This document shows, one piece after another, positions 2,729-64,000 of a DNA stretch of 64,000 nucleotides. Under the pieces are notes generated by a model, which searched no databases, was not told the DNA's origin, and saw only the letters and a program-made list of their open reading frames with translations. The DNA is from an uncultured bacterium (lineage in GTDB: Bacteria > Methylomirabilota > Methylomirabilia > Rokubacteriales > DASRDR01). Both the position numbers and the translations under genes were made by a program. Where the stretch lies: positions 70,931-134,930 of the forward strand of contig CAYXBJ010000092.1 of assembly GCA_964463175.1 (NCBI GenBank). Direction: 5' to 3'. Positions within the stretch are counted from its first letter, which is position 1; each line of letters starts with the position of its first letter.

Positions 2729-2773
2729 CCTATCCTGCCCGGCCGGTCGGCGGCGAGAGGTGCGCGCGGGGAC

Positions 2774-10281: not shown

Positions 10282-10905
10282 GTGAATCGCGAGGGCTGCA
10301 CGCCGGCTACGCGGGACGCCACATCTCGCGGGGCCGGAACTCACCTGACTCGATTGCGCCACGGCCCCGCTCGCTTCGCGCGGACCGTCGCCGCCATCGC
10401 GTCGGCGGCATGGGCCCTCTCCGGCCCCGCGGCCCTGGCCGATGACGACGCGGACCGGAAGATCGCCGAGTCTGCGCTACACGAAGCCCGTGCCGTGCTC
10501 GACCAGGAGCTGTTGGGGCACTACGACCTCGTCCGGCTAACTGTCGAGCACGGCGAGGAGCTGCCGGAGCGGCGTGCCCTCGGCCACGACTACGGGCTCG
10601 CGAGAGTCACGCTCGCCTTCTCGGCCCGCAGAAATGCCACGAGACACCCGGGGCTGAATCCGCGCCTGTTCGAGCCGGGCAGCGCGATGTGTCAGGGGTG
10701 GCTGTACTTGCACTGCGGGGTGCCGGTCGGGCACGTGTTCGACGGCCGGATGGAGCTCGTGCTGGCTCTCGACGGGCAGGGGGCCTGGCGCGCGGTGTCG
10801 CCGCACTGGCGCTCGAGACGACAGTACCCGCTGGACGGGTACCTGCTCCTGGACGGACGCGAGCCGGACGGCTACGTGCGGTTTCCCCAGCAGCCGGCGC
10901 CCTGA
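10282..10905 (+). CDS. hypothetical secreted protein
   Basis: 207 aa. Signal-peptide-like region TVAAIASAAWALSGPAALA. No recognised domain. Confidence 0.45.
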   Translation: MNREGCTPATRDATSRGAGTHLTRLRHGPARFARTVAAIASAAWALSGPAALADDDADRKIAESALHEARAVLDQELLGHYDLVRLTVEHGEELPERRALGHDYGLARVTLAFSARRNATRHPGLNPRLFEPGSAMCQGWLYLHCGVPVGHVFDGRMELVLALDGQGAWRAVSPHWRSRRQYPLDGYLLLDGREPDGYVRFPQQPAP

Positions 10906-10945
10906 GCGGCGCGCCCGCCGGTGGCGGCCACGGCCGCCGAGCGCG

Positions 10946-47886: not shown

Positions 47887-48073
47887 GCCGACGCGCACCG
47901 CGCCGGGGCCGCACGCGGGGTCTGATGGACGGCGGTCCGATCCATGCTCGACTCCCCTCGCGTGCCATCGTCCGTGTCGGGCTGGCAGCGCGCAATTACG
48001 TCGGAGGTAGCGCGGCCGCCCGCGTTGACACCCGTCGGCCGGCGTGGCACGGTCGCCGCGGAGGGCGGCGGCC

Positions 48074-49339
48074 ATGGACGAGATCGCGCGCGATCGATTC
48101 GGCAATCCCCACGCGCCGGGCTTCCCGTACGCCCGGGGGACCCTCGTCACCAGCACCCAGGATGACCTCCGGAAGCTCCGCCATGCCTGGGCGCTCATCG
48201 AAGCGCGCGTCCGGAAGGACGGGGCCGAGGCCGTCTTCAATTTCTCCGGGCTCGAGCGCAGTCTGACCGCCGCGCCGAGCGAGGTCGCGTTTCTCGACGA
48301 CGAGCTCGCCCCCGCGCTCTACGCGGACCGGGTCCGGGCCCTCGCGCTCGATCACCTCGGGGGGCGGCCCGAGCGCCACGACGTCATGCTCTTCAACCGG
48401 ATGACGGCCGCGACGCTCGCCACCCACCTGGTCCTCGTCCGGCCCGGAGACACCGTCATCGGCGTCTCCCCGAGCTACACGCACCCCACCGTCGTCCGGA
48501 GCGCCGCGCTGGCCGGTGCCCGCTTCGTCGACACGGTGGGGGCGGACGCCTTCGCCGCCGCGCTCGCCGGCGAGGAGCGCGTCGGTCTCGTCGTGCTGAC
48601 CCGCCTGGCGGTGAGCTACGACGTGCTCCCCACGGAGGCCCTCGGGCGCGTGGTCGCCCTCGCGCGGGCCCGGCGCGTGCCGGTCTATGTCGACGACGCC
48701 GGCGGCGCGGGGGTGGGCCCGGCGGTGCTCGGCCAGCCGCGGATGCTGGAGCTCGGGGTCGATGTGGGCGCGACCGGCCTCGACAAGTACGGCACGGTGG
48801 GCCCGCGCCTCGGGCTCCTCGCCGGCGAGACGAGCCTGGTGGCGCAGATCCGCGCGCGGGCTTTCGAGCTCGGGCTCGAGGCGCGGCCGATGCTCTACCC
48901 CGCCGTCCTCCGCTCGCTCGAGCAGTACACGCCCGAGCGGGTCCGCGACCTGGTCGCGACGACGATGGGGGTGGCCGACGCCCTCCAGGAGCGGCTCGGG
49001 ACCCGTGTGCACCGCACGCCGGTCACCGCCCAGCTCCGGGGCGAGGACATCCTCGAGGCCGCCCGCGAGCGCGCGGGCGTGCGCGAGCGGACGCTCGTGC
49101 CCATCGAGGCGACCGCGGCCCTGGCGATGATCCTGCTCGAGGACCACGGGATTCTCACGGTCCACTTCGCCGGCATGCCGCCGGGGACGTCGGCGATGCT
49201 CTTCAAGTTCGTCCCGCCCGAGACCCTCGCCCGCTTCGGCGGAGCCGCGGTGCTCGCCCGCGCCGTCGACGGCGCGCTCGACCGGCTCGCAGCCCTGATC
49301 GGCTCGCCGGACGCGGTGCGCGCGCTGCTCTACGGCTAG
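48074..49339 (+). CDS. hypothetical protein, possibly a PLP-dependent transferase-like fold (SelA-like)
   Basis: Internal ATG (MDEIARDRF). Globular composition. GLDKYGTVGP segment resembles the PLP-Lys region of SelA-type enzymes. Weak. Confidence 0.4.
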   Translation: MDEIARDRFGNPHAPGFPYARGTLVTSTQDDLRKLRHAWALIEARVRKDGAEAVFNFSGLERSLTAAPSEVAFLDDELAPALYADRVRALALDHLGGRPERHDVMLFNRMTAATLATHLVLVRPGDTVIGVSPSYTHPTVVRSAALAGARFVDTVGADAFAAALAGEERVGLVVLTRLAVSYDVLPTEALGRVVALARARRVPVYVDDAGGAGVGPAVLGQPRMLELGVDVGATGLDKYGTVGPRLGLLAGETSLVAQIRARAFELGLEARPMLYPAVLRSLEQYTPERVRDLVATTMGVADALQERLGTRVHRTPVTAQLRGEDILEAARERAGVRERTLVPIEATAALAMILLEDHGILTVHFAGMPPGTSAMLFKFVPPETLARFGGAAVLARAVDGALDRLAALIGSPDAVRALLYG

Positions 49340-49405: not shown

Positions 49406-52042
49406 TTACGTCGGCCCGAGGCCGAAATCGGTCATCAGGACTCCGTGCCAGCGCTGCGGCTGCCCGACGGTCACGGTCGCGGCGGTGGGTCCGAGCGCCT
49501 CGGCCGCCGTCGCCGGCGGCGCGCCCTTCACGCCCACGAACGCGTGGGACTCGTGAAACCGCCCGCGGAGGTCCCCGCCCACGCCGAGGTCCCGGAGCGC
49601 GGCGATCGCCTCGGCGCTCAGCCGGCCTGAGGCCTCGTCCTTTACCGCACCCGCCACGATCGTGCCGGGCGGCAGCGCGCCGACCCAGGTCGCCAGCTCG
49701 TGGGCCGCCTCGGGCTTGAAGAACGTGTCGAAGAAGACCGTGGCGATGGGCGTCCCGTCTGGATTGAGCGCGACCAGGTTGTACCCCCGACGATTGCGCG
49801 CCATCTCGACGCCGTCGAGCTGGATGGAGGCCACGTCTCCGTACGGCTGCCCGCCGCTCCGGATCGCGAGATCCCGGGGGCTCGCCGTACCGGTCTGCCC
49901 GATGTGATAGCGCGCGTCGCTGACCGACGGGTCCGCCCGGTAGCGATAGCGATGGGTCAGGACGATCTCGTTGGGCATCACCGGCACGAACGGCGAGGAC
50001 AGGGTGGCCGTGGCCGTGGCGTCCTCGTTCACCGGGATCCGCTGGATGAGGCGCCCGTTGAGCTCGAGGTCGACCCACTGATCCAGCGTCGGATCCCGGT
50101 CGATCGGCCGCAGAGCCACTCGCAGGCGCGGGTGCTCGCGAAGGAAGCCGTACGAGACCAGGCGCCATAGCCGCGTGCCCTCCTCCGGCAGCGGCTCGAT
50201 CTGGTACAGGTCGACGTCCCCCACCACGCCACGGAACCGGAGGAGCGCCGGCGCCTCTTGGCGGAGGGCCTCCCAGGTCGGCCGTGTGTCCTTCGGCAGC
50301 TCGGCGCGGCGGACGACGAGGTACCGGAGGGGATAGATCTGGCGGAGCGCGGTCTGGGCTTCGGGCGTCGGGTACGGCGGCCCCGGCGAGGCGAGCCGCT
50401 GGCCCAGCTTCAGGGTGAAGCCCGGCACGAATCCGGCCCACGCGTTGACCACGCGGTGCCCATGGAAGACCGACCGCAGCATCGCGTCGCCGTCGCTCGG
50501 CGGGTGCATCGGCCACTCGAGGACCGCCACATCGTCGGGGTCGGTGCGGAGCACGGTGTCGACGGGACGCGGGACCACCCGCACCATCTCGAGCGACAGC
50601 GGGAAGCGCGCGTACTCCACCAGGAGGAGCGCGACGATGCCGACCGTCACCGTCCGCGCCATCCGCGGGGGGACGCGGGCGAGCAGCCACGCCACGCCGA
50701 ACCCGGCCAGGAGGGCCACCGCGAAGGCCGCCAGGAGTCCGAAGCGGCTCGTGGTCCGGATCACGTGAAGCGGGAAGACGTAGGGATAGAGCCAGGTGTA
50801 GAAGCCGTCCCCGCGCAGATGATTGTGCACGTGGACGACCGGCCCCAGAGACAGGAAGAAGGCGAAGCCGGCGACGACGAGCAGCAGGCCGACCCAGTCC
50901 CGCTCGGACAGCCGCCGATCGGCGAGACCGTCCCGCCGTCGCTGCCATCCCTCGCAGCCCTCGCGGGCCAGCGCCAGCAACAGCACGGCGGCGCCCGCGG
51001 CGGAGAAGGCGCTCGGCCCGAGGAGGAGGCGCGGCCCGGCCACGGCCGCCAGGATGACCACACCAACGCCGGCCAGCACCGCGGCGGCCAGCAGACGCGC
51101 CGGGCGGCTGCGCGGGCCGGGCCGCCGCAGCCAGCAGATGCTCAGGGCGGCGAGAATCAACGCGACCACGCCCACGAACAGCGACGTCTCGCCGGACCCG
51201 ATGTCGACCAGGTGCCCGAACCAGCTCCCCTCCGTGCGCAGGTACGTGAAGAGGTCGGCGTAGCGGGTGACGTCGACGTCCTTGGCCGCACGCTCGAAGC
51301 CGACGTCGTGATGGGTGACCAGGTAGGGCCACGCGATCGGCGCCATCGCTACCGCGAGCGCCGCGCCGCCGAGCGCGGCGGCCGCGATCGTCCGGCCGCG
51401 CCAGCCGGTCCAGCGAAGGGCCACGTACTGGAGCCCGACCACCACCAGGCCCAGCCCCAGGATGACGGTCACGTACCAGACCGAGATCGCCTGGAGCCAG
51501 AAGACCGCCAGGAACGCCGCCAGGTACCGCACCCGCTGGCTCTCCAGGAACCGGATCAGGGTGTAGATGCCGAGCGGTATCCCGAAGGTGAGCTCCATCT
51601 GGAACTCGCCCGCGTACTGCATCCGGGGGAGCGAGAGGGTGAAGATCAGCGCCGCGACCAGGCCGGCGACGTGCCGGCGCGTCAGCCAGAAGGCGACCGC
51701 GTACGTCGCCCACCCGGAGAGCGCCCACAGCAGCACCAGCGCGATCTTGTGGGCCAGGACCGGGTTGCGGGTCAGCGCGAACACCGGCCCCGCGATGAGG
51801 GCCGGCATCACGAGCGGCTCGGTGAAGGTCAGCGTGTTGCCGAGCGGATAGATGGCGTTTCCCTGGAGGAGCGCAGCCGGCTGGGCGAAGAGATTGTGGA
51901 ACACGGCCAGCATGATCCACGTCATCGTGTGGGCATCCGGATTGTCCGGCAGCTCGACGGGGCTCCGCATGAGCGGCCAGCTGTAGAGGACAACCAGGAC
52001 GACGAAGAGCAGGAAGACGCCGAGGTGCGCGCGGAGCCTCAT
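49406..52042 (-). CDS. large polytopic membrane protein (GT-C-like?) with C-terminal ILEI/FAM3 (PANDER-like) domain
   Basis: Real start MRLRAHLGVF at 52042, overlapping the epimerase stop (ATGA). The upstream 260 aa of the 1138-aa track ORF are artefact. About 14 TM helices. C-terminal GYNLVALNPDGTPIATVFFDTF...GTIVAGAVKDEASGRLSAEAIAALRDLG...HAFVGVKG aligns with the FAM3/ILEI core (GINVALVN..G..LDTKYFD...GTIV..TYDD.ATKLNDEARRLIADLG...F.GGKG). Confidence 0.6.
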   Translation of the reverse strand: MRLRAHLGVFLLFVVLVVLYSWPLMRSPVELPDNPDAHTMTWIMLAVFHNLFAQPAALLQGNAIYPLGNTLTFTEPLVMPALIAGPVFALTRNPVLAHKIALVLLWALSGWATYAVAFWLTRRHVAGLVAALIFTLSLPRMQYAGEFQMELTFGIPLGIYTLIRFLESQRVRYLAAFLAVFWLQAISVWYVTVILGLGLVVVGLQYVALRWTGWRGRTIAAAALGGAALAVAMAPIAWPYLVTHHDVGFERAAKDVDVTRYADLFTYLRTEGSWFGHLVDIGSGETSLFVGVVALILAALSICWLRRPGPRSRPARLLAAAVLAGVGVVILAAVAGPRLLLGPSAFSAAGAAVLLLALAREGCEGWQRRRDGLADRRLSERDWVGLLLVVAGFAFFLSLGPVVHVHNHLRGDGFYTWLYPYVFPLHVIRTTSRFGLLAAFAVALLAGFGVAWLLARVPPRMARTVTVGIVALLLVEYARFPLSLEMVRVVPRPVDTVLRTDPDDVAVLEWPMHPPSDGDAMLRSVFHGHRVVNAWAGFVPGFTLKLGQRLASPGPPYPTPEAQTALRQIYPLRYLVVRRAELPKDTRPTWEALRQEAPALLRFRGVVGDVDLYQIEPLPEEGTRLWRLVSYGFLREHPRLRVALRPIDRDPTLDQWVDLELNGRLIQRIPVNEDATATATLSSPFVPVMPNEIVLTHRYRYRADPSVSDARYHIGQTGTASPRDLAIRSGGQPYGDVASIQLDGVEMARNRRGYNLVALNPDGTPIATVFFDTFFKPEAAHELATWVGALPPGTIVAGAVKDEASGRLSAEAIAALRDLGVGGDLRGRFHESHAFVGVKGAPPATAAEALGPTAATVTVGQPQRWHGVLMTDFGLGPT

Positions 52043-53004
52043 CGCCCGCCGGTGGGAATCGCGCCGGAAGTCCGGCGCGCGCCGGCCCGCGAGGGGCTGG
52101 GCCCGGCCACGGGCCGCGGCACCCGGGCCAGGCCCTCGCGAAAGCCCACCGGCCGGTACCCGAGATCGGCGCGCGCCTCGGACCAGTCGGGCAGGGCGTC
52201 CTGCGTCAGTCCCGCGATCACGTGCGCGGTGAACGGCGCCCGCCGCGTGACCGCGCCCATCGCCGCGGCCGCCGCCCGGCAGAGCCAGACCGGCAGGGGA
52301 ACGAAGGGCTTGTGGATCCCCTCGTGCTCGAGCGCAAGCCGTCCCATCTGCCAGAGCGTGATCGGCTCGCCGCCGCAGAACGGATAGATCTTGCCGTAGG
52401 CCTTCGGATTCCCGGGAATGGCCAGGAACCCCCGCATCAAGTCGTCCACGTGCACCGGGTTCTTCCGCGCCCGGCCGTGTCCGACGAAGATCCCGACCGG
52501 CCACCGCTTCAGGAACTCCACGAACGTCCGGTATTCCTCGCCGCCGTTCTCGTTGTACGCGAGGGTCGGGCGCACGATCGTCCAGCGCATGGCCGTCTGC
52601 TCGCGCACGATGCGCTCCGCCTCGCGCTTGGACGCGTTGTAAGGCGTCGTCCACGGATACGTGACGGAGATGGACGAGCAGAGGATGAAGTGCGTGACCC
52701 CGGCCGCGATCGACGCGTCCACCAGGTTGCGCGTGCCGTCGGCATTCACGCGCTGGAATACATCGGCACGGTCGTTCAGCAGCACGGCCGCCAGGTGGAA
52801 CACGGTCTGAACGCCCTGGCACACGCTCGGGAGGCTCGGGGCGTCCGTCACGCTGCCGTAGACGATCTCGCAGTCGAGGCCGGCCAGGCGCGAGATGTAC
52901 GGGTCGCCCGGCAGGGTCAGCACGCGGACGCGGTGCCCGGCCCTCACCAGGCCGTGCACCAGGCGGGAGCCGATCACACCTGCGCCACCGGTTACCAGAA
53001 TCAT
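52039..53004 (-). CDS. NAD-dependent epimerase/dehydratase family protein (SDR)
   Basis: 321 aa. Rossmann motif ILVTGGAGVIGSRL and catalytic YxxxK (YNASK). Confidence 0.85.
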   Translation of the reverse strand: MILVTGGAGVIGSRLVHGLVRAGHRVRVLTLPGDPYISRLAGLDCEIVYGSVTDAPSLPSVCQGVQTVFHLAAVLLNDRADVFQRVNADGTRNLVDASIAAGVTHFILCSSISVTYPWTTPYNASKREAERIVREQTAMRWTIVRPTLAYNENGGEEYRTFVEFLKRWPVGIFVGHGRARKNPVHVDDLMRGFLAIPGNPKAYGKIYPFCGGEPITLWQMGRLALEHEGIHKPFVPLPVWLCRAAAAAMGAVTRRAPFTAHVIAGLTQDALPDWSEARADLGYRPVGFREGLARVPRPVAGPSPSRAGARRTSGAIPTGGR

Positions 53005-53032
53005 GGGCGTCGCTTCCTTCTCGGCGTCCCGC

Positions 53033-54925
53033 TCACCAGAGCTGCTGCTTCTCGAGAAACACCATGCACCACAGCTCGAGGATGACGAGGGACAGCACCT
53101 GCTTGAGGTAGAGGAACTCCCCGCTCGCCATCTGCGCCACCAGTGCGGCCACGGCGTCGGGGTCGAACCAGCCGCGGCGGCGGACGCGCGCGGGATCCAG
53201 AGTCAGGCGAATCAGCTCGCGGATCTCGGAGTGCTCGTGGAAGTACTCGAGCGGCAGGTAAAAGGGGTTCTTGCTGCGCCGCACGTTGTCCGCCGGAAGC
53301 CACTTGCGTCCGAGCTCGCGCTCGATCCACTTGTCGCGCAGCCCGCGCACCTTGTCGCGGGTCGGCAGGCGGAAGGCCTGCTCGATCAGGCGGTGATCGA
53401 GGAACGGACAGCGGAGCTCCAGGGAGAACGCCATCGTGTTCTTGTCCTGGCGCAGCAGCAGGTTGTCCTGGAGCCAGTCGTCGTACTGCAGGCGCAGGAG
53501 CCGGTCGAGGAACGGGCCGCCGCCGCGCGGGCGGTGCAGCCAGCTCCACCCCGCCTGGGCACGGAGCGCCGGCGCGTACAGGCGGGCGCGCTCCCCGGGA
53601 TCGAACAGCGCGCGCAGCGTCACGTAGCTCTGGGCCAGATCGCGGTCGTAGTAGCCGCGCAGGTAGTCCACGGTCTTGGCCTTGCCGCGCTCGCCCAGGT
53701 AGGCGGGGTAGACGAAGAACCGGTCGAGCAGGCCCACCGGCGCCGCCTGGAGCAGGGCGGCGGCGCCGCGGTTGAGCGCGCGCGGCACGAGGCGCCGGTA
53801 GCGTTCCGTCCACAGGATGACCTTGTGGAAGGAGTAGCCGGCGTAGCTCTCGTCCGCGCCCTCGCCGGAGAGGACGACCTTCACGTGGCTGGAGGTCTCC
53901 CGGGCCAGCTGCCAGTAGGCAAGGACCAGGGCGTCGCCGATGGGGCGCTCCAGGTGGTAGATCGCCCGCGGCAGCTCCGCGAAGTGCTTCGGCTCGAGGT
54001 AAATCTCGTGGTGCTCCGTACCCAGGCGCTCGGCGAGAGCGGACGCCTCGCCCGTCTCGTCGATCGGCGAGCGGAAGCCGATCGAGAAGGTCTGGAGCTT
54101 CGGGGTGAAGCGCCGGGCGGCCGCCACGACCAGGCTCGAGTCGATGCCGCCCGAGAGGTACGCGCCGACCGGGACGTCGCTGCGCAGCGCGATGCGCACG
54201 GCATCCAGGAAGATATGCTCGAAGGCCTCGAGGTTCTCGCCGTCGCTCCGCCACGGCCCGTCGCAGACGGGCACGTCCCAGTAGCGACGGACGTCGAGCG
54301 CGCCGGCCCGAAACCGCAGGCAGTGGCCGGCGGGCAGCACGTGGACGCCGGCCAGGAGCGTCTCCGGCTGCGGGACGTAGCGGAGCGCCAGGTAGCCGTC
54401 CAGCGCCGGGAGGTTGGGCCGCCGCGCGACCTCGTCCGACTCGAGGAGCGCCTTGATCTCCGAAGCGAAGACCAGCCGGCCGCTGGCGTGATGATAGTAG
54501 AGCGGCTTCTGGCCGGCGCGGTCGCGCGCGAGGAACAGCTCCTCGCGGCGACGGTCGAGGATCGCGAAGGCGAACATCCCGTTCAGCCGCTCCAGGCAAT
54601 CCGGGCCCCACGCCTGGTACGCGTGGACGATCACCTCGGTGTCGGAGCGGGTGCGCAAGCGGTGGCCGCGGCTCTCGAGCTCGTCGCGCAGCTCGACGTA
54701 GTTGTAGATCTCGCCGTTGGAGATCACGGCCAGCGACTCGTCCTCGTTGAAGATGGGCTGCCCGCCGCCCTCGAGATCGATGATGGAGAGCCGGCGCATG
54801 CCAATCGAGACCCGGCCCTCGTGGAAGTACCCCTCGCCGTCCGGGCCGCGATGGCGCAGCACGGCGCCCATGCGGCGGAGGAGATCGGGCTGCTCGAATC
54901 CGGCGAATCCGAAGATCCCGCACAT
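53033..54925 (-). CDS. asnB: asparagine synthase (glutamine-hydrolysing) family amidotransferase
   Basis: 630 aa. N-terminal nucleophile MCGIFG and PP-loop SGGIDSS. In a glycan locus it may amidate a sugar acid rather than make Asn. Confidence 0.9.
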   Translation of the reverse strand: MCGIFGFAGFEQPDLLRRMGAVLRHRGPDGEGYFHEGRVSIGMRRLSIIDLEGGGQPIFNEDESLAVISNGEIYNYVELRDELESRGHRLRTRSDTEVIVHAYQAWGPDCLERLNGMFAFAILDRRREELFLARDRAGQKPLYYHHASGRLVFASEIKALLESDEVARRPNLPALDGYLALRYVPQPETLLAGVHVLPAGHCLRFRAGALDVRRYWDVPVCDGPWRSDGENLEAFEHIFLDAVRIALRSDVPVGAYLSGGIDSSLVVAAARRFTPKLQTFSIGFRSPIDETGEASALAERLGTEHHEIYLEPKHFAELPRAIYHLERPIGDALVLAYWQLARETSSHVKVVLSGEGADESYAGYSFHKVILWTERYRRLVPRALNRGAAALLQAAPVGLLDRFFVYPAYLGERGKAKTVDYLRGYYDRDLAQSYVTLRALFDPGERARLYAPALRAQAGWSWLHRPRGGGPFLDRLLRLQYDDWLQDNLLLRQDKNTMAFSLELRCPFLDHRLIEQAFRLPTRDKVRGLRDKWIERELGRKWLPADNVRRSKNPFYLPLEYFHEHSEIRELIRLTLDPARVRRRGWFDPDAVAALVAQMASGEFLYLKQVLSLVILELWCMVFLEKQQLW

Positions 54926-55170
54926 CGCGGCGCGCCCAGTCCCCCGAGATAGGTGGCTCGGCAGCCGTGACTGCCGGTCCCCGAGGGTGCGCGCGGGCCC
55001 GTCTCGGCGTCAAGAAGTCGGGCCTAACCAGGTACGATCCAGGAAAAACCCGAATGGGGTGAAAATGGCCGCACAGTCCGTGTCGGCGATGCCCTGCCGT
55101 TCGTGCCCCGAGTCGCCGTCTGGCCCGGGCGCCGCGCCGACGTTCCTCAGAACAGGGGGGCCGCGAGCGC

Positions 55171-56289
55171 GTGCGCATCCTCTACTGGTCCCCGGTCTTC
55201 TGGCCGCAGATCGGCGGGGTCGAGGTAATTGCCGCGCAATTCATCCCGGCCATGCAAGCCCGCGGTCACGAGTTCACCGTGATCGCGGGACTCGGCAGCC
55301 TGGAAGCGCCCTCCGTGACGTGGTATCGCGGGGCGGCCGTGCACCGGCTGCCGATCTGGACGGCAATTGCGGCCCGGGACCTCGCGCAGATCGCCACCGT
55401 ACAGCGCGCCGTCGCGGCCATCAAGCGCGAGCTCTCGCCCGAGGTGATCCATCTGAACTACTACCCCCCGAGCGTCTTCTTCCACACGAGAACGGCGCGG
55501 ATCGCACCGGCTCCCCTGCTGCTGGCGCTTCGCGGCGCGCCGCCGGGCGAGGCCGCCGCCGGGGATACACTCGTGCACCGCGCGTTCGACGCGGCCGCCT
55601 GGACCACGGCCGTGTCGCGATCGGTCCTCGACGCCGCCCGCCAGGCCGCGCCGCGGATTGGCGGTCGATCCTCCGTGATCTACAATGGCCTGCCGATGCC
55701 GCCCGACACGCCGCGAGCCCTCCCGATGGATCCGCCCCGTCTCCTCTGCCTCGGGCGCCTGGTCCGGGAAAAGGGCTTCGACCTCGCGGTGGCCGCCTTC
55801 GGTCAGCTCGCGGAGCGCTTTCCGCGGCTCGCGCTGGTGATCGCCGGCGATGGGCCGGAGCGAGCCGGACTCGCCCGGCAAGTAGCCGGGCTCGGGCTCG
55901 CCCATCGTGTCACCTTCTCGGGATGGGTCGCCCCGAATGAGGTCCCCTCGCTCATCAACACGACGACGATCGTGCTCGTGCCGTCCCGCTGGGAAGGACT
56001 GCCGGGCGTCGCAATCCAGGCCGGGCAGCTCGCGCGACCCGTGGTCGGCGCGCGAATCTGGGGCCTCCCCGAGATCGTCCTCGACGGCCAGACCGGTCTT
56101 CTGACGGATCCCGACGACTACGTGGGACTGGCCGCCGCGATCGCGACCTTGCTCGATCAGCCGTCGCTGGCGGCGCGCATGGGTCAGGCCGCTCGCCGAC
56201 GGGTCGAGGGGCTCTTCGGATGGGACCGCTATCTCGATGCCTACGACGCGCTGTATCGCTCTCTCGGCCAGGAGGCACGCGCATGCTGA
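55171..56289 (+). CDS. glycosyltransferase family 4 (GT-B, group 1)
   Basis: 372 aa. N-terminal (M/V)RILYWSPVFWPQIGGVE. C-terminal EGLP.....A...G.PVV motif (WEGLPGVAIQAGQLARPVVGARIWGLPE). Confidence 0.85.
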   Translation: MRILYWSPVFWPQIGGVEVIAAQFIPAMQARGHEFTVIAGLGSLEAPSVTWYRGAAVHRLPIWTAIAARDLAQIATVQRAVAAIKRELSPEVIHLNYYPPSVFFHTRTARIAPAPLLLALRGAPPGEAAAGDTLVHRAFDAAAWTTAVSRSVLDAARQAAPRIGGRSSVIYNGLPMPPDTPRALPMDPPRLLCLGRLVREKGFDLAVAAFGQLAERFPRLALVIAGDGPERAGLARQVAGLGLAHRVTFSGWVAPNEVPSLINTTTIVLVPSRWEGLPGVAIQAGQLARPVVGARIWGLPEIVLDGQTGLLTDPDDYVGLAAAIATLLDQPSLAARMGQAARRRVEGLFGWDRYLDAYDALYRSLGQEARAC

Positions 56290-56756
56290 GCGGAGACGCC
56301 CGGTTTCGCCCCAATGTCGAGGAGGTCGCCGCGGACATCCTCGACGGCGAAGCCATCATGATCAACCTCTCGACGGGCATGTACTACAGCATGGACCCGG
56401 CCGGCACGGCGGTCTGGTCGCTCCTCGCCGCAGGACGCAGCGTCGAGGAGATCGGCACTGCGCTGACCCGACGCTTCGACGTGGCCCGCGAGCAGGCCGA
56501 CGCCGATGTCCGGCTACTCCTGGCGAAGCTCGTCGAGGAGAATCTGGTCCGACCGGCCGATCGGGAGCCCTCGGGCTCGGCCGATCCCGACACGCGGGAG
56601 CCTGCTGGTGAGCCGAAGCGCCCCTACACCGCACCCCAGCTGGAGATCTACCGGGATGTCGGCCACCTGGTCGCCCTCGACCCGCCCATGCCCGGCCTGA
56701 AGGACCTTCCCTGGCAGGAGCCCGGCGACGATCCGTTCCCGCGTCGGCCTGCCTGA
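56283..56756 (+). CDS. PqqD-family protein (RiPP recognition element-like) with Pro/acidic C-terminal extension
   Basis: ATG overlaps the GT4 stop (ATGCTGA). Residues 10-95 (VEEVAADILDGEAIMINLSTGMYYSMDPAGTAVWSLLAAGRSVEEIGTALTRRFDV...VRLLLAKLVEENLV) fit the PqqD/RRE winged-helix pattern. Followed by a ~60-aa extension. Confidence 0.75.
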   Translation: MLSGDARFRPNVEEVAADILDGEAIMINLSTGMYYSMDPAGTAVWSLLAAGRSVEEIGTALTRRFDVAREQADADVRLLLAKLVEENLVRPADREPSGSADPDTREPAGEPKRPYTAPQLEIYRDVGHLVALDPPMPGLKDLPWQEPGDDPFPRRPA

Positions 56757-57849: not shown

Positions 57850-58574
57850 CCCCGGCGCCCCTGGTGAGCTGCGTGATCCCGGTCTTCAACGGCGAGCGAT
57901 TCCTGCGCGACGCCATCGGGAGCGTCCTGGCCCAGACGTACCCGGCGGTGGAACTCCTGGTCGTGGACGACGGCTCGACGGACGGCACCCGCACCGCGGT
58001 CGCGTCGTTCGGAGCCCGCGTGCGCTACCTGTGGCAACTCAATGCCGGGCCGGCACCGGCGCGCAACGCTGGCATCGCTGCCGCCACCGGCGCGTTCGTC
58101 TCCTTCATCGACTCCGACGACTGCTGGGAGCCGGAAAAGCTCGCGCGCCAGATCGCGCGGTTCCAGGCCCGTCCCGAGCTCGATCTCTGCGTCACGCACA
58201 TCCAGAACTTCTGGATGCCCGAGGTCGCGGACGAGGAGCGGCGACTGGCGGGGAGCCGGCAGGCTGGGCCACTGCCGGGCTACTCGAGCGTCACTCTCGT
58301 CGCCCGCCGCGCGCTCTTCGAGGCGATCGGCGCGTTCGACGTCACCCTCAAGCACGGCGACGACACGGACTGGTTCGCGCGGGCCGAGCGGCACGGCGCG
58401 GTCTCCGAGCTGCTCCCCGACGTGCTCGTGCGCCGGCGGCTCCACGCGAACAACCGCAGCCGGCAGTGGGCGGGGCGCAGTCGCGCCGAGTACCTCGCGC
58501 TCCTGCGCACGCTCGTGGGCCAGCGCCACCCCGCGCAGAGTCCGGCCGCCGCGCCCCGCTCGGAGCCCGTGTAG
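57846..58574 (+). CDS. glycosyltransferase family 2
   Basis: 242 aa. VSCVIPVFNGERFL, DDGSTDGT and FIDSDD (DxD) motifs. Confidence 0.85.
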   Translation: MTPAPLVSCVIPVFNGERFLRDAIGSVLAQTYPAVELLVVDDGSTDGTRTAVASFGARVRYLWQLNAGPAPARNAGIAAATGAFVSFIDSDDCWEPEKLARQIARFQARPELDLCVTHIQNFWMPEVADEERRLAGSRQAGPLPGYSSVTLVARRALFEAIGAFDVTLKHGDDTDWFARAERHGAVSELLPDVLVRRRLHANNRSRQWAGRSRAEYLALLRTLVGQRHPAQSPAAAPRSEPV

Positions 58575-58599: not shown

Positions 58600-59736
58600 A
58601 TGCGCGTCCTCCTCTGGTCCGAGCTCTTCTGGCCTTATCTCGGCGGGGTCGAGATCCTGGCGAGCCGATTCGTGCGCGCGATGCAGGCCCGGGGTCACGC
58701 GCTCGCCGTCATCACGTCCCATGCCGAGCTCGACCTCCCGGACGAGGACGAGCGCGCCGGCGCCCGGGTGTGGCGATTGCCGTTTCGGGCAGCGCTCGCC
58801 GCGCGCGAGCTCGGCCGGGTCCGACTCGTCCGGCAGCGCGCGGGGGAGCTGGTGCGGACGTTCGATCCGGACGTGATTCACCTGTACGCGCTCGGGTCCA
58901 GCGCCGTGTTCGTCTCCCAGGCGCGGGGCGATCCGCCCCGCCCCCTCGTGCTGACGCTGCACGGGGAGATCCTTCGCGAGTCGGCCGGCGGGCCCGACAC
59001 GGTCGTGCAGAAGATCCTGCGCACGGCCAGCTGGACGGCGGGCGTCTCGATGGCGGTCCTGCAGCAGGCTCAACAGCAAGCGCCGGAGCTGGTCGGTCGC
59101 TCGTCCGTCGTCTACAACGCGCTCGACATGCCCGCGCCCCCGGCGGAGCCACTGCCGCGAGAGCCCCGCTTGCTCTGCCTGGGCCGCCTCGTTCCCGACA
59201 AGGGTTTCGATGTCGCGCTGGCCGCCTTCGCCGAGCTCTTGCCCCGATACCCACGCGCGCGGTTGCTCGTGGCCGGGGACGGGCCCCTGCGTGAGCCGCT
59301 GGCGCGGCGCGCGGCGGATCTGGGCGTGAGCGGCGCCGTGGACTTCCTGGGCTGGGTCGCGCCGGACGGCGTGGCCGATCTCCTGAACCGGGCCACGATC
59401 GTCATCATGCCGTCCCGCCGCGAAGGACTCCCGCTCGTGGCGATCCAGGCGGCCCAGATGGCCCGCCCCGTCGTGGGGAGTCGCGCCGGGGGGCTGGCCG
59501 AGATCGTGATCCACGACGAGACGGGCCTACTGGTGGCGCCCGGTGATGTCCACGCATTGGTCGACGCCCTCACGGCGCTACTGACTCAGCCGGAACGCGC
59601 GGACCGGCTGGGGCGGGCCGCCCGCGCGCGAGTCGGGAGCGTCTTCGGATGGGAGCGCCATCTGGAGGCGTACGAGGAGATCTATGGGCGCGCCGCGCGG
59701 CATGCCCGGAATGCTCCGACCGGAGCGGGAGGGTGA
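58600..59736 (+). CDS. glycosyltransferase family 4
   Basis: Internal ATG (MRVLLWSELFWPYLGGVE). C-terminal REGLPLVAIQAAQMARPVVGSRAGGLAE motif. Confidence 0.85.
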   Translation: MRVLLWSELFWPYLGGVEILASRFVRAMQARGHALAVITSHAELDLPDEDERAGARVWRLPFRAALAARELGRVRLVRQRAGELVRTFDPDVIHLYALGSSAVFVSQARGDPPRPLVLTLHGEILRESAGGPDTVVQKILRTASWTAGVSMAVLQQAQQQAPELVGRSSVVYNALDMPAPPAEPLPREPRLLCLGRLVPDKGFDVALAAFAELLPRYPRARLLVAGDGPLREPLARRAADLGVSGAVDFLGWVAPDGVADLLNRATIVIMPSRREGLPLVAIQAAQMARPVVGSRAGGLAEIVIHDETGLLVAPGDVHALVDALTALLTQPERADRLGRAARARVGSVFGWERHLEAYEEIYGRAARHARNAPTGAGG

Positions 59737-60866
59737 GGATCCTGTTCTGGTCCGACACGTTCTGGCCCGTCATCGGCGGCGTCGAGGTTCTCGGGAGCCG
59801 ATTGGTACAGGCGCTCCGGGCCAGAGGCCACGACCTCATAATCCTCGCCCGGCGCGATCGCGACGATCTCCCCGACGAGGACCGGTACGCCGACGTCCCA
59901 CTCTACCGGTTTCCCCTCCGCGCGGCGCTGCAGTCGCGCGATCTGGGTCTCGTGATGTCGCTGCGCCGGCGGGTCGCGGCCCTGATCCACGACTTCGACC
60001 CGCAGATTGGGCACATCTATCACTCGGGCCCCGGCGTGTACTTCTACCTGCAGGCGCCCGCGACGCGCCGTGTGCCACTGCTCATGACGCTTCACCAGAC
60101 GTATGTCCCGGAGCTTCTCGAGCCCGACTCGCTCCGCGGCCGGCTCCTTCGTCGCGCGCAGTGGGTCACCGCGTGCTCGGACTCCGTCCTGCAGTGCACG
60201 CGACGGCAGCTCCCGGAGATCAGCGCCCGGTCCTCGGTCGTGCTCAACAGTCTCAACATGCCCGGCACGCTGCCGACCGCGCTCCCCTCCGACCCGCCTC
60301 GTCTCCTGTGCGTGGGCCGTCTCCTGCCCCAGAAAGGCTTCGATCTCGCGCTTCGCGCGTGGGCGCGCCTGCACGGTCAATTCCCGGGCGCACGGCTCCT
60401 CATCGCCGGGGACGGGCCGGCACGGGCCGAGCTCCAACAGGACGCGGCCGACCTCGGCCTCCAGTCCGTGGAGTTCCTCGGCTGGGTAGCCCCCGACGCC
60501 GTCCCGGACCTCATCAACACGGCCACGCTCGTCATCATGCCGTCGCGCATCGAGCCACTCGGGCTCGTGGCCGTTCAGGCCGCCCAGATGGCCCGGCCGA
60601 TCGTGGCGACTCGAGTGGACGGTTTACCCGAAGTCGTGATCCATGGACAGACGGGCTTGCTCGTCGAGCCGGACGATGTCGACGGCCTGGCCCAGGCGAT
60701 CCGCCATCTTCTCGAGCACCCCTCGATCGCCACCGCCATGGGCCAGGCGGCGCGGCGGCACGCCGAAGAGGTCCTCGAGTGGAACGCCCACGTCGGCGCG
60801 TACGACCGTCTCTACCGGCAGCTGGCCGGCGTGGCGTGCCGGCATGCCGCGGGCGCCCCGCCGTGA
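59733..60866 (+). CDS. glycosyltransferase family 4
   Basis: GTG start overlapping the upstream stop (GTGA). VRILFWSDTFWPVIGGVE...IEPLGLVAVQAAQMARPIVATRVDGLPE. Paralogue of the two other GT4s. Confidence 0.85.
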   Translation: MRILFWSDTFWPVIGGVEVLGSRLVQALRARGHDLIILARRDRDDLPDEDRYADVPLYRFPLRAALQSRDLGLVMSLRRRVAALIHDFDPQIGHIYHSGPGVYFYLQAPATRRVPLLMTLHQTYVPELLEPDSLRGRLLRRAQWVTACSDSVLQCTRRQLPEISARSSVVLNSLNMPGTLPTALPSDPPRLLCVGRLLPQKGFDLALRAWARLHGQFPGARLLIAGDGPARAELQQDAADLGLQSVEFLGWVAPDAVPDLINTATLVIMPSRIEPLGLVAVQAAQMARPIVATRVDGLPEVVIHGQTGLLVEPDDVDGLAQAIRHLLEHPSIATAMGQAARRHAEEVLEWNAHVGAYDRLYRQLAGVACRHAAGAPP

Positions 60867-60974: not shown

Positions 60975-62789
60975 ATGCCCGGCCTCCATCTCGTGGTGGA
61001 CTGGCGCGGCGGCATCGCCCGCCGGCGCCCCGAGATTCTCGCCGCGCTGGATGGTGTCCGGCACTCGGACACCTACGGGACGAGCATCCTGCTCGAGGAC
61101 GACTTCCTGCTGCTCGCGCAGTCTGGCTATGCGGAGTATCCCGTCGCGTGCCACGAGGTGAACGGCGTCCGCGTGATCGTCGAAGGGCGGCTCTACGGGC
61201 TGGCCGCGTCGGAGCGCGCGGCGCAACTCGCCGCGCTGGTCGCCGGGGTCTTCGACGACCCCGACGCCCGGTGGGAGCGCGTACGGGATTGGCTCCTGGC
61301 CGTCGACGGGGACTTCGTGGCCGTCCTGCTGCAGCCCGCGACGGGCGAGATCGCGATCGTGAACGACATGTTTGGCCGGCTCCCTCTCTATCTGCAGCGC
61401 TCCGCGGCGGGCCTGGTCGTGTCCCGTGAGTTCCGATTTCTGACGCGCCTCGCCGACCGGATCGAGTTCGATCGCCTGGCCCTGGCGCAGTCCCTCCTCC
61501 TGGGTTTCCCGCTGGGCGAGCGCACGCTGGTCGAGCGTGTTGAGCGTCTTCCGCCCGGGACGCTTGGTCGGTGCAACCCGCGTCGGCGGGAGGTGCGGCT
61601 GGAGCGCCTGCACCACCTGAGCCTCGAGGCCAAGCCCTTCGCGAGTGTGCCGCTTCCGGAGCACGCCGCGAATCTGGTCGAGCGGCTCTCCGCAGCATGC
61701 GCCGCGCGCCGGGACGCCGGCGCGGTGGTGTTGTCGCTCAGCGGCGGCTTCGACGCGAGAGCCGTCGGGGCCTGCCTCGTGCGCCATGGCATTCCCTTCC
61801 AGTGCGCCACGTTCGTCGATCATGTGGGCAACGCCGACGCCGACGCGCCGATCGCCCGGCAGATCGCGGCCCTCTTCGAGGCCCCGTGGGACCTGATCCG
61901 GCTGGGTCCCCCGCGTCCTCGCGACGTGCTGGCGCTCCTCCGGATGAAGAGCGGCATGAATCCCCTGGGGATGGCCTTCTTGCTACCGTTCCTGGCGGCC
62001 GTCCGGGACCACGCGCCGAGGCCCGCGCAGCTCGTCACCGGAGAGATGGGTACGTTCACGCTGACGGATCCGAGCCCGCCGCGCGTCCCCGCCAGCGCGA
62101 GCGACCTGGTCAGTCAGGTCATGGCGGAGAATCACCGGTTTTCGCTGGCCGAGGCCGCGGCCCTCACGCGCATCGCGCCCGGGGACCTAGCCGACATGCT
62201 CGCGCAGCACGTCCTGCGCTATCCGGAAGACGACTACGGCCAAAAGTACGCGCACTTCCGGATGTGCGAGCGCGCCTTCAACTGGCACGGGGAGGCGGAA
62301 GACCGAAATCGCTGCTACGTCTGGACGACCAGTCCCTTCTACGCGCCGCGCTTCTTCCAGGCGGCCATTGGCGGGCCGGATGCGCACAAGACTCGCTACC
62401 GACTCTACCGGGAGTTGCTCGTCCGCCTGTCCCCCACCGTCGCCGCCATTCCGCACGCGGGCCTGGGTGTGGCGGTCACGGCGCCCTCCTTCGAGACGGC
62501 GAGCCGGGTCGCCGCGCTGATCGGCGCCGATTCCCGCGCCCGCGAGGCCCTGGTCCATCGGCTCGCACCCGCCGACGTCTACGGACCGGATTCGACCGTG
62601 GTGCGGTGCCTCCGGCAGCAGGTCGCGACGTGCGAGCCGCTTGCCGACTATCTGTCGCCCTCGGTCCTCGCGCGCGTGGTGGACGCGAGCGCCCACCACA
62701 CCCGGGCGCAGCTCGACCAACTCTTCACGATCACGTCGGCCATCGAGGACCTCGCGACGGGCTCGACCGTGCTGGAGCGGCGGCTCTGA
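60975..62789 (+). CDS. asparagine synthetase-like adenylating enzyme lacking the glutaminase nucleophile (lasso-cyclase-like / AsnB C-domain homologue)
   Basis: 604 aa. Begins MPGLHL with no Cys2. Degenerate N-terminal domain. PP-loop LSLSGGFDARAVGACL. Extensive AsnB-like C-terminal domain. Confidence 0.75.
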   Translation: MPGLHLVVDWRGGIARRRPEILAALDGVRHSDTYGTSILLEDDFLLLAQSGYAEYPVACHEVNGVRVIVEGRLYGLAASERAAQLAALVAGVFDDPDARWERVRDWLLAVDGDFVAVLLQPATGEIAIVNDMFGRLPLYLQRSAAGLVVSREFRFLTRLADRIEFDRLALAQSLLLGFPLGERTLVERVERLPPGTLGRCNPRRREVRLERLHHLSLEAKPFASVPLPEHAANLVERLSAACAARRDAGAVVLSLSGGFDARAVGACLVRHGIPFQCATFVDHVGNADADAPIARQIAALFEAPWDLIRLGPPRPRDVLALLRMKSGMNPLGMAFLLPFLAAVRDHAPRPAQLVTGEMGTFTLTDPSPPRVPASASDLVSQVMAENHRFSLAEAAALTRIAPGDLADMLAQHVLRYPEDDYGQKYAHFRMCERAFNWHGEAEDRNRCYVWTTSPFYAPRFFQAAIGGPDAHKTRYRLYRELLVRLSPTVAAIPHAGLGVAVTAPSFETASRVAALIGADSRAREALVHRLAPADVYGPDSTVVRCLRQQVATCEPLADYLSPSVLARVVDASAHHTRAQLDQLFTITSAIEDLATGSTVLERRL

Positions 62790-64000
62790 GCGTGTTCCCG
62801 GAATCCGGGCCGGCGCGGATCGCGCCCGCGCCGGCGGCGTCCCCAGTCGCCCTGCCCCTGGCCGGGGTGCTCCGCCTGCTACTCCCCACCGCCACGGAGT
62901 CTGCGCTGTTGCGCGCGTTGCTGTGGCCGGCCGACCGCGGCGCCGGCGCCTGGGCGTCGTGGCGGACCGAGGTCGGCGGGCTCCGCGCGGCCTTGGAACG
63001 CAATGCGCCCGGCCTGAACGGGCTCCTGCCCCTCCTCGGGCACGCGCTTCGGGCCAGCGGCGTGACCCTGAGCGACGACGACCGGGCCTGCCTGCGAAGC
63101 GCGCAGCTGTGGGAATCCGCGCGCTATGCGGCCTACCGGGCCATCCTCCTCGACGCGCTGGCGAGGCTCGCCGTCCATCGCATTCCCACGATCCTCCTCG
63201 ACGGCGCGGCGCTCGCCCAGACGGTCTACGAGACGCCCGTGCTCCGTCATTGCCATGCCATTGCACTGTGGGTACCGGACGCTCAGCTCGCGACCGCGGC
63301 CACACTGCTGATCGAGGGCGGGCTTCGTCCGGACGGACTCCCGGGCGGCACGACGCCGGACCTCGTCGCGCTGCACCACGAGTCCGGCCTTCCGATCCGC
63401 CTGGGCTCCGGCCTGTTGCGACCCGTGTTCCCCGCGTCAGCCGGGGACGAGCTCTGGGATCGGAGCGGGGCCCTCGACCTGTCGGGGACGGGCACGCGCA
63501 TCCTGGGCGACGCCGATGCCCTGCTCCACGTCTGCGGCCGCGCGGCCACGGTCTCGCGCGAGAGCCCCCTGGTGTGGGCCGCTGACGCCTGGTTCATCCT
63601 GAGGAGGCGCGCCGCGCTGGACTGGCACGGATTCCTGGAAGGGGTGCGGCGGGCCAACCTCGCCCTCCCGCTCGCCGCCATGCTGGCGTATCTCGCGGGC
63701 GACCTGGAGGCGCCCGTTCCCGACCATGTCCTGACGGCGTTGGAGCATGCCGCGCGCCGGACGGACGGCCTTGGGCGTCAGATCGCGGTGGCGGGCGTGC
63801 ACCGCGCCGGACGAGCCGGTCTGCGCGCGCTGGCCCGGGGCACCTCTTGCGGGCGCGACCGGCTGACGCTGGCTCGCTGGGTGCTGCTCCCGTCTCCCAA
63901 GTACGCTCGATGCGTCGGCGGGGCGCGAAGCACGGGAGGGGTGCTGCGATACTACGTCGCGCGGGCGCTCCGATACGCGCGGCGTCGCTGGACAGCGTCC
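62790..64000 (+). CDS. nucleotidyltransferase-family protein (PF14907-like), 3' truncated by the window end
   Basis: Open frame from the GTG at 62790 to the window edge; absent from the track because it has no stop. LLLP...ESALLRALLW...W..W, IPTILLDGAALAQTVYETPVLRHCHAIALWV and ALHHESG pattern of the uncharacterised nucleotidyltransferase family that co-occurs with PqqD/HprK-like genes. Confidence 0.55.

Follow-up and report, generated by a model that had tools for sequence, protein, structure and literature searches.

A RiPP recognition element fused to a conserved leader-like tail in a kinase and glycosyltransferase cassette of an uncultured Rokubacteriales bacterium

The gene described here lies in a stretch of 64,000 nucleotides (the window) from contig CAYXBJ010000092.1 (assembly GCA_964463175.1) of an uncultured bacterium of the Rokubacteriales. 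It encodes a small protein in which a RiPP recognition element (RRE; RiPP, a peptide made by the ribosome and modified after translation) is followed in the same chain by a conserved tail with a leader-like motif; the protein and its family are called RRE-tail below. An RRE normally binds the leader of a precursor peptide made on ribosomes, and RiPP genome mining expects a nearby separate precursor for each RRE, a rule that the RRE-tail family systematically breaks. The motif of the tail very probably docks in cis into the groove of its own RRE, as judged from a predicted structure together with conservation data, and since it would occupy this groove, the 'missing precursor' would be the tail itself. 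The preferred reading, held with somewhat better than even confidence, is a self-loaded RRE, the tail of which is both its own ligand and a conserved segment presented within a cassette of kinase, PF14907 and glycosyltransferase genes.

The RRE domain and its tail

The start ATG of the RRE-tail open reading frame (ORF) overlaps the stop codon of the upstream GT4 glycosyltransferase gene (ATGCTGA), as noticed in a preliminary description of this DNA. JGI gene calls, made independently on four other contigs, begin at the same start, and almost all homologues in the 28-sequence alignment keep Met1. The preliminary description had recognized a PqqD-like domain with a Pro/Asp/Glu-rich tail, and both parts are borne out: PF05402 (PqqD) matches residues 23-89 over 67 of its 67 profile positions (E=3.4e-17, 63 bits against a cut-off of 23.4), and the tail (residues 90-157, 68 aa) contains 15 Pro, 8 Asp and 5 Glu. 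The best NCBIfam matches of the domain are two lasso PqqD-chaperone models, both under cut-off, and phmmer matches it to TbiB1 (2.3e-10), PbaB1 (9x90), LppB (9x8z) and TfuB1. An AlphaFold2 model was built with a 119-sequence alignment and has a mean predicted local distance difference test score (pLDDT) of 78.9. The RRE part of the model exceeds a pLDDT of 90, with predicted strands at residues 15-20, 23-28 and 33-37 followed by helices at 39-49, 54-64 and 69-85, that is, the three strands and three helices of a winged helix, and with locking strands at 7-10 and 89-91. Foldseek against the PDB places leader-bound TbiB1 and TfuB1 at the top (TM-score on target 0.83-0.92, probability 1.00, 23-33% identity). 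On these profile and structure matches the domain (residues ~5-91) is assigned as a lasso-type RRE.

The homologue search covered a set of 5.8 billion proteins and yielded 289 clusters at 90% identity, or 208 at 50% identity with E<=1e-30. Nearly all of the homologues among those listed are 140-164 aa long, with a query coverage of about 87% or more. Whether homologues carry the same tail had been left as a question; the 289 homologues share it with near full-length coverage, and its module is more conserved than the RRE. Conservation of the tail was measured in two alignments, of 28 and 119 sequences. Against a reference entropy of 1.38 bits for the RRE (residues 1-89), the linker (residues 90-112) has 2.83 bits with a top-residue frequency of 0.26, and the module that follows (residues 113-147, consensus xPYxxPxLxIYRDMGDLLALDPPMPGLxDxPWKEP) has 0.96 bits. 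Within the module, residues 124-147 reach 0.79 bits, the highest conservation in the whole protein. The last residues (148-157) have 2.69 bits and are Ser-rich in relatives. The earlier impression of a disordered-looking tail is thereby corrected, as the hypervariable residues 90-112 are followed at 113-147 by the best-conserved part of the protein. Invariant in the 28-sequence alignment are Y115, P118, L120, D125, L129, A131, D133, P134, P135 and P137, of which Y115, D125, A131, D133, P134, P135 and P137 are also invariant in the 119-sequence alignment; there, P118, L120, R124, G127, L129, L132, L139 and W144 are conserved at >=90%. The position of Asp133 is occupied by Glu in Thermotogota and Bipolaricaulota. 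A comparison of the tail with PDB sequences gave no meaningful match. After the conserved Trp, the family has a stub with a mean length of 9.4 aa and a Ser content of 15%; Ser or Thr occurs there in 135 of 157 relatives, so that the Ser enrichment is suggestive, not universal. The protein of the window has no Ser or Thr after Thr116 (residues 117-157). JGI loci were collected besides 40 genome loci, and the hosts at the latter, all from metagenome-assembled genomes (MAGs), are Rokubacteria, Methylomirabilis, deltaproteobacteria, Binatia, Gemmatimonadota, Acidobacteriota, Nitrospirota, Planctomycetota, Thermotogota, Bipolaricaulota, Actinomycetota and others.

The tail matches [Y/W]xxPx[L/V/I/A/F/Y], the motif by which the leaders of lasso peptides, of the newly described LPPs (linear polyphosphorylated peptides) and PqqA bind discrete lasso-type RREs (PMC13381572; PMC10368454) and which lies, as a YxxPxL-type motif, at positions -17 to -12 of lasso leaders (PMC10368454). 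A lone YxxPxL match in a Pro-rich tail of 68 aa would be insignificant by itself (estimated p about 0.2); the signal becomes significant because the motif is near-invariant between hypervariable flanks and is joined by covariation and structure prediction. In the AlphaFold2 model residues 111-120 have a mean pLDDT of 92, the linker falls below 50 at residues 98-105, and residues 120-123 are predicted as a strand. In the crystal structures of LppB:LppA and PbaB1:PbaA the residues directly after the conserved Leu/Val extend the RRE sheet (PMC13381572), a binding mode with which the predicted strand after Leu120 agrees. The pLDDT declines along the distal module to 70, then 55, then <50, residues past 130 being at 55 and below. 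The groove residues Y60, D70, F74, M78 and L83 of LppB correspond to residues 65, 75, 79, 83 and 88 of the RRE-tail protein in a gap-free phmmer alignment; all five positions are nearly invariant in the 28 sequences, and Y65, L79, L83 and L88, not D75, also in the 119.

In LppB, D70 forms a hydrogen bond with the hydroxyl of the leader Tyr (PMC13381572). The anchor of the RRE-tail motif (position 115) varies together with the equivalent residue 75. Of 280 distinct units with a Tyr anchor, 253 carry Asp and 23 carry Asn at residue 75, which makes 276 in total. In a soil clade of 65 distinct sequences, Phe accounts for 40 of the 43 recognized anchors, and all but 4 of the sequences have Ala, Gly, Ser or Val at residue 75; the scattered units elsewhere with a Phe, Ile or Leu anchor are mostly without Asp at this residue. 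This covariation is exactly what a bond from the Tyr hydroxyl to Asp predicts. The linker from the end of the RRE to the anchor has a median length of 20 residues (18-22 in ~256 of ~300 sequences), and D133 always lies at anchor+18, with zero indels across the family. Proteins with several units in tandem are known as well, with two units in P0121, P0123, P0126, P0127 and P0216 and three in P0131, P0135 and P0245. Essentially each RRE of these proteins has a [Y/F/W]xxPxL-type motif of its own behind it (in P0245 the chain just stops at the last unit), and the distal DMxDLLxLDP module is present on only one unit per protein. Docking in cis is the best-supported reading and is strongly inferred from the AlphaFold2 model, the conserved groove, the covariation, the constrained linker length and the tandem units.

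The search for a separate precursor and the cassette

The fusion of tail and RRE is obligate in the loci collected. It was found in 39 of 39 non-redundant genome loci, and a metagenome scan with the tail of the soil clade gave 327 stretches, 80 of which were examined and 76 were informative, with the RRE in the same ORF as the tail in 76 of 76. The preliminary description had seen no convincing small ORF nearby, and this stands: the cassette of the window contains no plausible small ORF, its genes abut or overlap, and the sole sizeable gap (54926-55170) holds just Arg-rich ORFs of 31 and 41 aa. All-against-all BLASTP clustering of 5,081 ORFs of 18-130 aa, from 42 loci and from 46-64 kb of the window, revealed no conserved small-ORF family among them, the recurring ones being low-complexity or antisense artefacts. 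A hidden Markov model (HMM) of the tail found no free-standing tail module in six-frame translations of all loci and of the whole window, its extra matches being a fragment in L005 and the frameshifted L043. A tail-only profile search of the 5.8-billion-protein set returned 7 short proteins, at least 5 of them contig-end or frameshift fragments; the sensitivity of this search is doubtful because the full-length family was oddly not returned. P0271, P0272 and P0275 were recognized as contig-end or frameshift fragments when their contigs were inspected, P0274 and P0276 start with the end of an RRE, and P0277 probably does likewise. The sole stand-alone tail-like ORF found is P0273 (58 aa, …VPYVPPVLEKFTDMQDLILLDPVHEVSERGWPH…; L050:515-691), on an ENA contig of 941 bp. 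It lies directly upstream of an HprK-like gene, with an RRE in no upstream frame, and could be a genuine split version or the product of a chimeric short contig.

A conserved short ORF beside homologous cassettes, named earlier as the finding that would speak against a missing precursor, is thus absent from the 39 genome and 76 metagenome loci, with L050 as the exception. Of the three options offered at that time, the tail as substrate or tether is retained in a sharper form, in which the tail carries the cis-docking ligand of the RRE; the other two were a substrate encoded elsewhere and an RRE with a non-peptide partner. No RNA family of Rfam was found over 47-64 kb. No natural RRE-leader fusion was found described in the literature, of which coverage was incomplete, and engineered and enzyme-fused RREs were found.

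The gene stands in a conserved cassette of RRE-tail, HprK-like kinase, GT2, GT4 and PF14907 nucleotidyltransferase (Table 1). Counted among same-strand neighbors in the 39 genome loci, GT2 is present in 36, GT4 in 32, the HprK-like gene in 31 (directly downstream of RRE-tail in 13) and PF14907 in 27, with 12 more PF14907 genes among the unassigned neighbors. These counts are lower bounds because contig ends truncate many loci. AsnB-family genes occur in 6 of the 39.

Table 1. Features of the RRE-tail gene and its cassette in the window
Feature	Position	Strand	Evidence
GT4 glycosyltransferase, stop overlaps RRE-tail start	55171..56289	+	PF00534 3.9e-35
RRE-tail gene (PqqD-like RRE and putative tethered leader-like tail), 157 aa	56283..56756	+	ORF listing, homologues
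RRE/PqqD winged-helix domain, residues 1-89 (Pfam match 23-89)	56283..56549	+	PF05402
Hypervariable linker, residues 90-112, length constrained	56550..56618	+	Entropy, pLDDT, spacing
Putative cap/cis-leader motif RPYTAPQLEIY, residues 113-123 ([Y/W]xxPx[L/V..] RRE-binding motif)	56619..56651	+	Conservation, AlphaFold2, covariation
Distal module RDVGHLVALDPPMPGLKDLPWQEP, residues 124-147	56652..56723	+	Most conserved segment; undocked in model
Variable acidic C-terminal end, residues 148-157, and stop codon	56724..56756	+	Entropy 2.69 bits
HprK-like/ScmC-like P-loop kinase, 340 aa	56827..57849	+	TIGR04352 5.4e-9, Hpr_kinase_C 0.0019, both under cut-off
GT2 glycosyltransferase	57873..58574	+	PF00535 2.2e-30, JGI gene call
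GT4 glycosyltransferase	58600..59736	+	Pfam, JGI gene call
GT4 glycosyltransferase	59733..60866	+	Pfam, JGI gene call
AsnB-like protein, 604 aa, accessory	60975..62789	+	Weak TIGR01536 1.8e-9, GATase_7 0.0055
PF14907 nucleotidyltransferase, cut by window end	62792..64000	+	PF14907 3.4e-24, 86 bits against cut-off 31.2

Proteins labelled HprK-like, ScmC-like and 'unk369' form one family. The kinase of the window has both a Walker A sequence (GRSGSGKT, residues 169-176) and an Asp-Asp motif (LGDD, 195-198). In P0257 (781 aa) and P0259 (789 aa), three RRE-motif units are fused to a C-terminal kinase domain, which aligns end to end with the window kinase (E=2e-23 and 1e-28, respectively); the fusion links the products of the RRE-tail and kinase genes directly. 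The PF14907 protein of the window is 39% identical to its homologue in L004; it has 420 aa on JGI contigs, with the full gene in L046 and L047 (L046:10237-11499), and its ILLDGAAL stands in place of the ILLKGAAL of relatives. It was the only PF14907 gene found in the 64-kb window.

The 604-aa AsnB-like protein is accessory and not a core partner, given how few loci carry AsnB-family genes. It begins with MPGLHL… and therefore lacks an N-terminal Cys nucleophile. No Pfam family matched it above threshold, and neither PDB sequences nor the lasso-cyclase models matched it. Its homologues (43-48% identity) are present in just the L008 and L011 cassettes, and four other cassettes have a true AsnB.

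A Pfam census of 103 unassigned same-strand neighbors (25 commonest families) yielded epimerases, small radical-SAM/SPASM proteins, sulfotransferases, two ABC transporters and two M48 peptidases. In this census Wzx, Wzy, priming phosphoglycosyl transferases, exporters, signal peptidases and transglutaminase-like leader peptidases did not recur, and the PADLOC defence models gave zero matches to six cassette proteins. A small radical-SAM protein of ~300 aa (CNRSCWFC) recurs in five cassettes, at L006:18521-19444, L007:7003-7932, L010:13542-14432, L015:973-1929 and L041:1879-2742. SPASM domains were matched in five neighbors, L005 and L006 have a second type of radical-SAM protein, and three loci have sulfotransferases (PF13469); such genes are accessory tailoring enzymes typical of peptide-modifying clusters. 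The deltaproteobacterial L005 has three near-identical RRE-tail genes (2646-3188, 8120-8629 and 10667-11215), each followed by GT2, and a tail fragment at 7780-8109. The Rokubacteria contig CAVPSB010000049.1 (L010, L013) carries two cassettes ~17 kb apart, each with its own RRE-tail gene. In the window, a divergent operon adjoins the cassette (49406-54925, minus strand) and comprises a glutamine-hydrolysing AsnB (53033-54925), an NAD-dependent epimerase (52039-53004) and an 878-aa multi-pass membrane protein (49406-52042, minus strand) with a C-terminal ILEI/PANDER domain (PF15711, 2.2e-15). The ILEI domain is unusual in bacteria. An ORF at 48029-49339 (plus strand; 436 aa, 421 aa in the JGI call) has a strong coding signal (GC content at third codon positions 0.95) but matches no Pfam family and lacks a homologue in the related loci.

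Proposed function and alternative explanations

In the proposed mechanism, a lasso-type RRE is joined to a linker of ~20-25 residues that is free in sequence and constrained in length. The segment P-Y115-x-x-P118-x-L120-x-I-Y would fold back into the peptide groove of its own RRE, with Tyr115 entering the first hydrophobic pocket and bonding to Asp75, and Pro118 and Leu120 filling the second. Residues 120-123 would add a strand to the RRE sheet, and the cap (residues 113-123) would complete and stabilize the RRE in cis. Docking would also set the register of R-D125-x-G-x-L-x-A-L-D133-P-P-x-P-G-L-x-D-x-P-W and the short acidic end, and by analogy the distal module (residues 124-147) and the C-terminal end may be held out for the HprK-like kinase, the PF14907 enzyme, GT2 and GT4. 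The analogy, from which this presentation and any chemistry on the tail are inferred only, is drawn from characterized systems. In these the RRE binds the leader motif and so presents the peptide that follows to the enzymes, and in the LPP, paeninodin and pseudomycoidin pathways such a peptide is first phosphorylated and then hexosylated. In LPP, Ser3 of the core receives up to four phosphates from LppK, LppB is not soluble in the absence of its leader, and the leader's C-terminal half is free of RRE contact and is proposed to address enzymes (PMC13381572). BsfB1 speeds the phosphorylation of Ser3 by BsfK (PMC10368454). PsmK phosphorylates a C-terminal Ser, and PsmN, called an uncharacterized NTP transferase and of the PF14907 kind, is needed for the addition of 1-2 hexoses to the phosphate (PMC6993621). 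The phospho-acceptor lies at anchor+18 in LppA (PMC13381572) and at anchor+19 in BsfA (PMC10368454), and lasso and LPP leaders are cleaved at +15 to +17. Asp133-Pro134-Pro135, at anchor +18 to +20, matches the spacing of these kinase sites, which supports a functional site here. That the tail is covalently modified is given slightly less than an even chance. A more specific proposal, at present a long shot, is that Asp133-Pro134-Pro135 is the reaction center of a Ser-independent pathway, in which the HprK-like enzyme, a builder of phosphoanhydride chains on phospho-Ser in relatives, would form an Asp acyl phosphate or the labile Asp-Pro bond would be cleaved, and a glycan from GT2 and GT4 would in either case be attached to the activated Asp. 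If true, this would amount to a protein- or peptide-glycan conjugate and to a class with RRE, leader and core in one chain across many uncultured phyla.

Several observations weigh against the self-loaded RRE or parts of it. Anchor and residue 75 covary mostly as a contrast between two clades, so that few independent events stand behind the covariation. The cis-docking model was read as pLDDT and secondary structure, and the data would also agree with head-to-tail docking from one molecule to another. Nowhere in the distal module is a Ser, Thr or Tyr acceptor conserved; 22 of 157 relatives, the protein of the window included, have no Ser or Thr after the conserved Trp, and two end at 'PWK'. 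The distal module is more conserved than usual RiPP cores, and in tandem and kinase-fused proteins it is internal, not at a free C-terminus. The kinase of the window matches kinase models weakly, and just its P-loop region aligns to solved HprK structures (E about 0.4). The PF14907 protein of the window reads HAIALWV where relatives have HDIDLLV, so that Ala stands at the positions of both predicted catalytic or metal-binding Asp residues. A sequencing error is excluded by independent JGI contigs, which have the identical sequence. The DxD is kept in 26 of the 27 motif-scorable PF14907 genes of related loci (one has DxE; 14 others are unscorable), and the D134A/D136A mutant of PsmN is inactive (PMC6993621). 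With the degenerate PF14907 and the end of the tail free of Ser and Thr, this organism may have changed or lost the phospho-hexose branch. A product has not been observed.

The RRE-tail protein may instead be a scaffold only, with the cis-capped RRE as a docking platform and the distal module as a short linear docking peptide, the two assembling the enzymes into a complex that builds a glycan on a non-ribosomal acceptor (lipid, sugar or other protein), and the tail remaining unmodified. A conserved hydroxyl acceptor is missing from the tail, some tails being entirely without Ser and Thr; the top conservation of the distal module is what is expected of a binding motif; the tandem multi-RRE proteins and the N-terminal fusion to the kinase resemble adaptor architecture; exporters and leader peptidases do not recur among the neighbors; and partner enzymes such as LppS are known to contact RRE:leader complexes. 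However, a lipid-carrier priming transferase, flippase or polymerase, which would mark an alternative acceptor pathway, does not recur, each characterized system of RRE, HprK-like and PF14907 proteins acts on an RRE-bound peptide, and the fixed spacing from the anchor to Asp133 is the position at which those kinases act. The scaffold is considered unlikely on balance and keeps substantial weight, because the acceptor is absent, the module is over-conserved and internal, and the window PF14907 lacks the DxD. A further explanation, regarded as improbable, makes the tail an autoinhibitory pseudo-leader that fills the groove until a genuine precursor encoded elsewhere, with its own YxxPxL leader, displaces it, frees the distal module and turns the enzymes on. 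The groove residues are still fully competent, L050 has its stand-alone tail-like ORF directly upstream of the kinase gene, and lasso RREs such as FusB1 take non-cognate leaders. In return, a conserved candidate precursor is absent from the 39 and 76 loci (MAGs, with a search local to the loci), a ligand on a tether, at a very high effective concentration, is not easily displaced, and each RRE of the tandem proteins has its own cap.

A lasso pathway, with the tail as a fused B1-A precursor and the 604-aa AsnB-like protein as lasso cyclase, would suit an RRE that is nearest to lasso B1 proteins, a tail with a YxxPxL motif and an AsnB-like protein without a glutaminase Cys in the operon. A B2 transglutaminase-like peptidase was not found in the window cassette, in the Pfam annotations of relatives or in the 25 commonest families of the 103 neighbors, and the AsnB-like protein, present in 3 cassettes only, fails the lasso cyclase models (NF033535, NF033561), with just weak matches to TIGR01536, TIGR03108 and TIGR03104. 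The tail has Val/Leu in place of Thr at -2, Leu in place of Gly/Ala/Ser/Cys at anchor+17 (core residue 1), no acidic residue at core positions 7-9 (the first one beyond D133 is at core position 10), and a putative core that is invariant, not variable. With the B2 peptidase, the cyclase match, the core residues and a separate precursor all wanting, this pathway is largely refuted and very improbable. An annotation artefact or a meaningless low-complexity extension (read-through, wrong stop or wrong start) might be suspected, as many spurious ORFs come from high-GC DNA and the tail is rich in Pro, Asp and Glu. The architecture is repeated in the 289 clusters at 90% identity and 208 at 50% (E<=1e-30) from at least a dozen bacterial lineages, and the conservation of the tail exceeds that of the domain. 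The conservation data rule out this explanation, the probability of which is practically nil.

A self-loaded RRE would have consequences for genome mining, as clusters with an 'orphan RRE' would be misjudged or discarded by precursor-centered tools because the RRE carries its own ligand. The scale is considerable, with at least 208 clusters at 50% identity, at least a dozen mostly uncultured lineages and 327 metagenomic stretches from one soil clade. Through these cassettes, a tailoring module of kinase and PF14907 that was known from Bacillota is also connected with large sets of glycosyltransferase genes in bacteria of soil and sediment. The RRE-tail protein is small, soluble-looking and self-contained, which makes cis docking and the modification state directly testable.

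Comparison with known systems

The LPP system (Popov et al. 2026, PMC13381572) is similar in having a core of RRE, HprK-like and PF14907 genes among glycosyltransferase and polysaccharide genes, with a lasso cyclase not required. The three genes of this core, with a discrete RRE, are found in the window operon and in its relatives, the kinase match being weak and the window PF14907 being without DxD. Both systems have an RRE derived from lasso-type RREs and a YxxPx[V/L] ligand anchored by a hydrogen bond from the Tyr hydroxyl to Asp, the bond being predicted for the RRE-tail family, and the C-terminal half of the conserved LPP leader, which makes no RRE contact and is proposed to address enzymes, resembles the distal module. 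In LPP, however, the motif is on a separate precursor of 35-200 aa, whereas in the RRE-tail family it is covalently fused to the RRE. The SpI/SipW-like leader peptidase and the MsbA-like exporter of LPP are not in the window cassette and are not recurrent here (ABC transporter domains in 2 of 103 neighbors), and GT2 and GT4 are core genes of the RRE-tail cassette, unlike in LPP. At anchor+18, LPP has the phospho-acceptor Ser and the RRE-tail family an invariant Asp or Glu, and the downstream consensus sequences (RDMGDLLALDPPxPGL in RRE-tail, LxHQxIxFETxxS in LPP) are unrelated. LPP is found in Bacillota, RRE-tail in Rokubacteria, Methylomirabilis, Binatia, Planctomycetota, Actinomycetota, Thermotogota and others, not in Bacillota.

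Paeninodin, pseudomycoidin (PMC6993621) and Bsf (PMC10368454) share with RRE-tail a discrete lasso-type RRE and a YxxPxL leader motif, and the kinds of enzymes are also shared, with an HprK-like kinase that acts on an RRE-presented Ser and the PF14907 enzyme PsmN for the hexose on the phosphate. Unlike these, the RRE-tail cassette has neither a separate precursor nor a B2 peptidase, a cyclase is not obligatory, the tail does not follow the lasso core rules, and the window PF14907 lacks the DxD motif that PsmN of pseudomycoidin needs. Haft's HPr-rel-A (TIGR04352) and SynChlorMet (ScmC/ScmD) pair a PqqD-family protein with an HprK-related P-loop protein, as seen here. Membership of HPr-rel-A, SynChlorMet or PQQ was rejected on the model scores: HprK_rel_A 35.6 against 200, HprK_rel_B 24.5 against 200, ScmC 20.6 against 125, ScmD 25.2 against 100, and PQQ_PqqD 24.8 against 46. 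No PqqA, PqqB, PqqC or PqqE gene is near the RRE-tail gene in the Pfam annotation of the window proteins. Judged by its sequences, the cassette resembles an LPP/paeninodin-type tailoring module, yet it falls outside each of the named systems.

TbiB1 (5V1U/5V1V) and TfuB1 (6JX3) are the best structural and sequence matches of the domain, with the same knobs-into-holes docking of Y, P and L as predicted for RRE-tail. These are two-chain complexes, whereas in RRE-tail the ligand is tethered in one chain via a natural linker. In engineered leader-in-cis RiPP enzymes and in natural fused-precursor RiPPs (borosins), a recognition sequence or a substrate is likewise joined covalently to the protein that recognizes it. 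The engineered fusions are artificial, and in borosins the catalytic enzyme carries the core, whereas in RRE-tail a stand-alone RRE carries a leader motif. If the reading as a self-loaded RRE is true, the RRE-tail family would be the natural counterpart of the leader-in-cis trick by which chemists obtain leader-independent RiPP enzymes.

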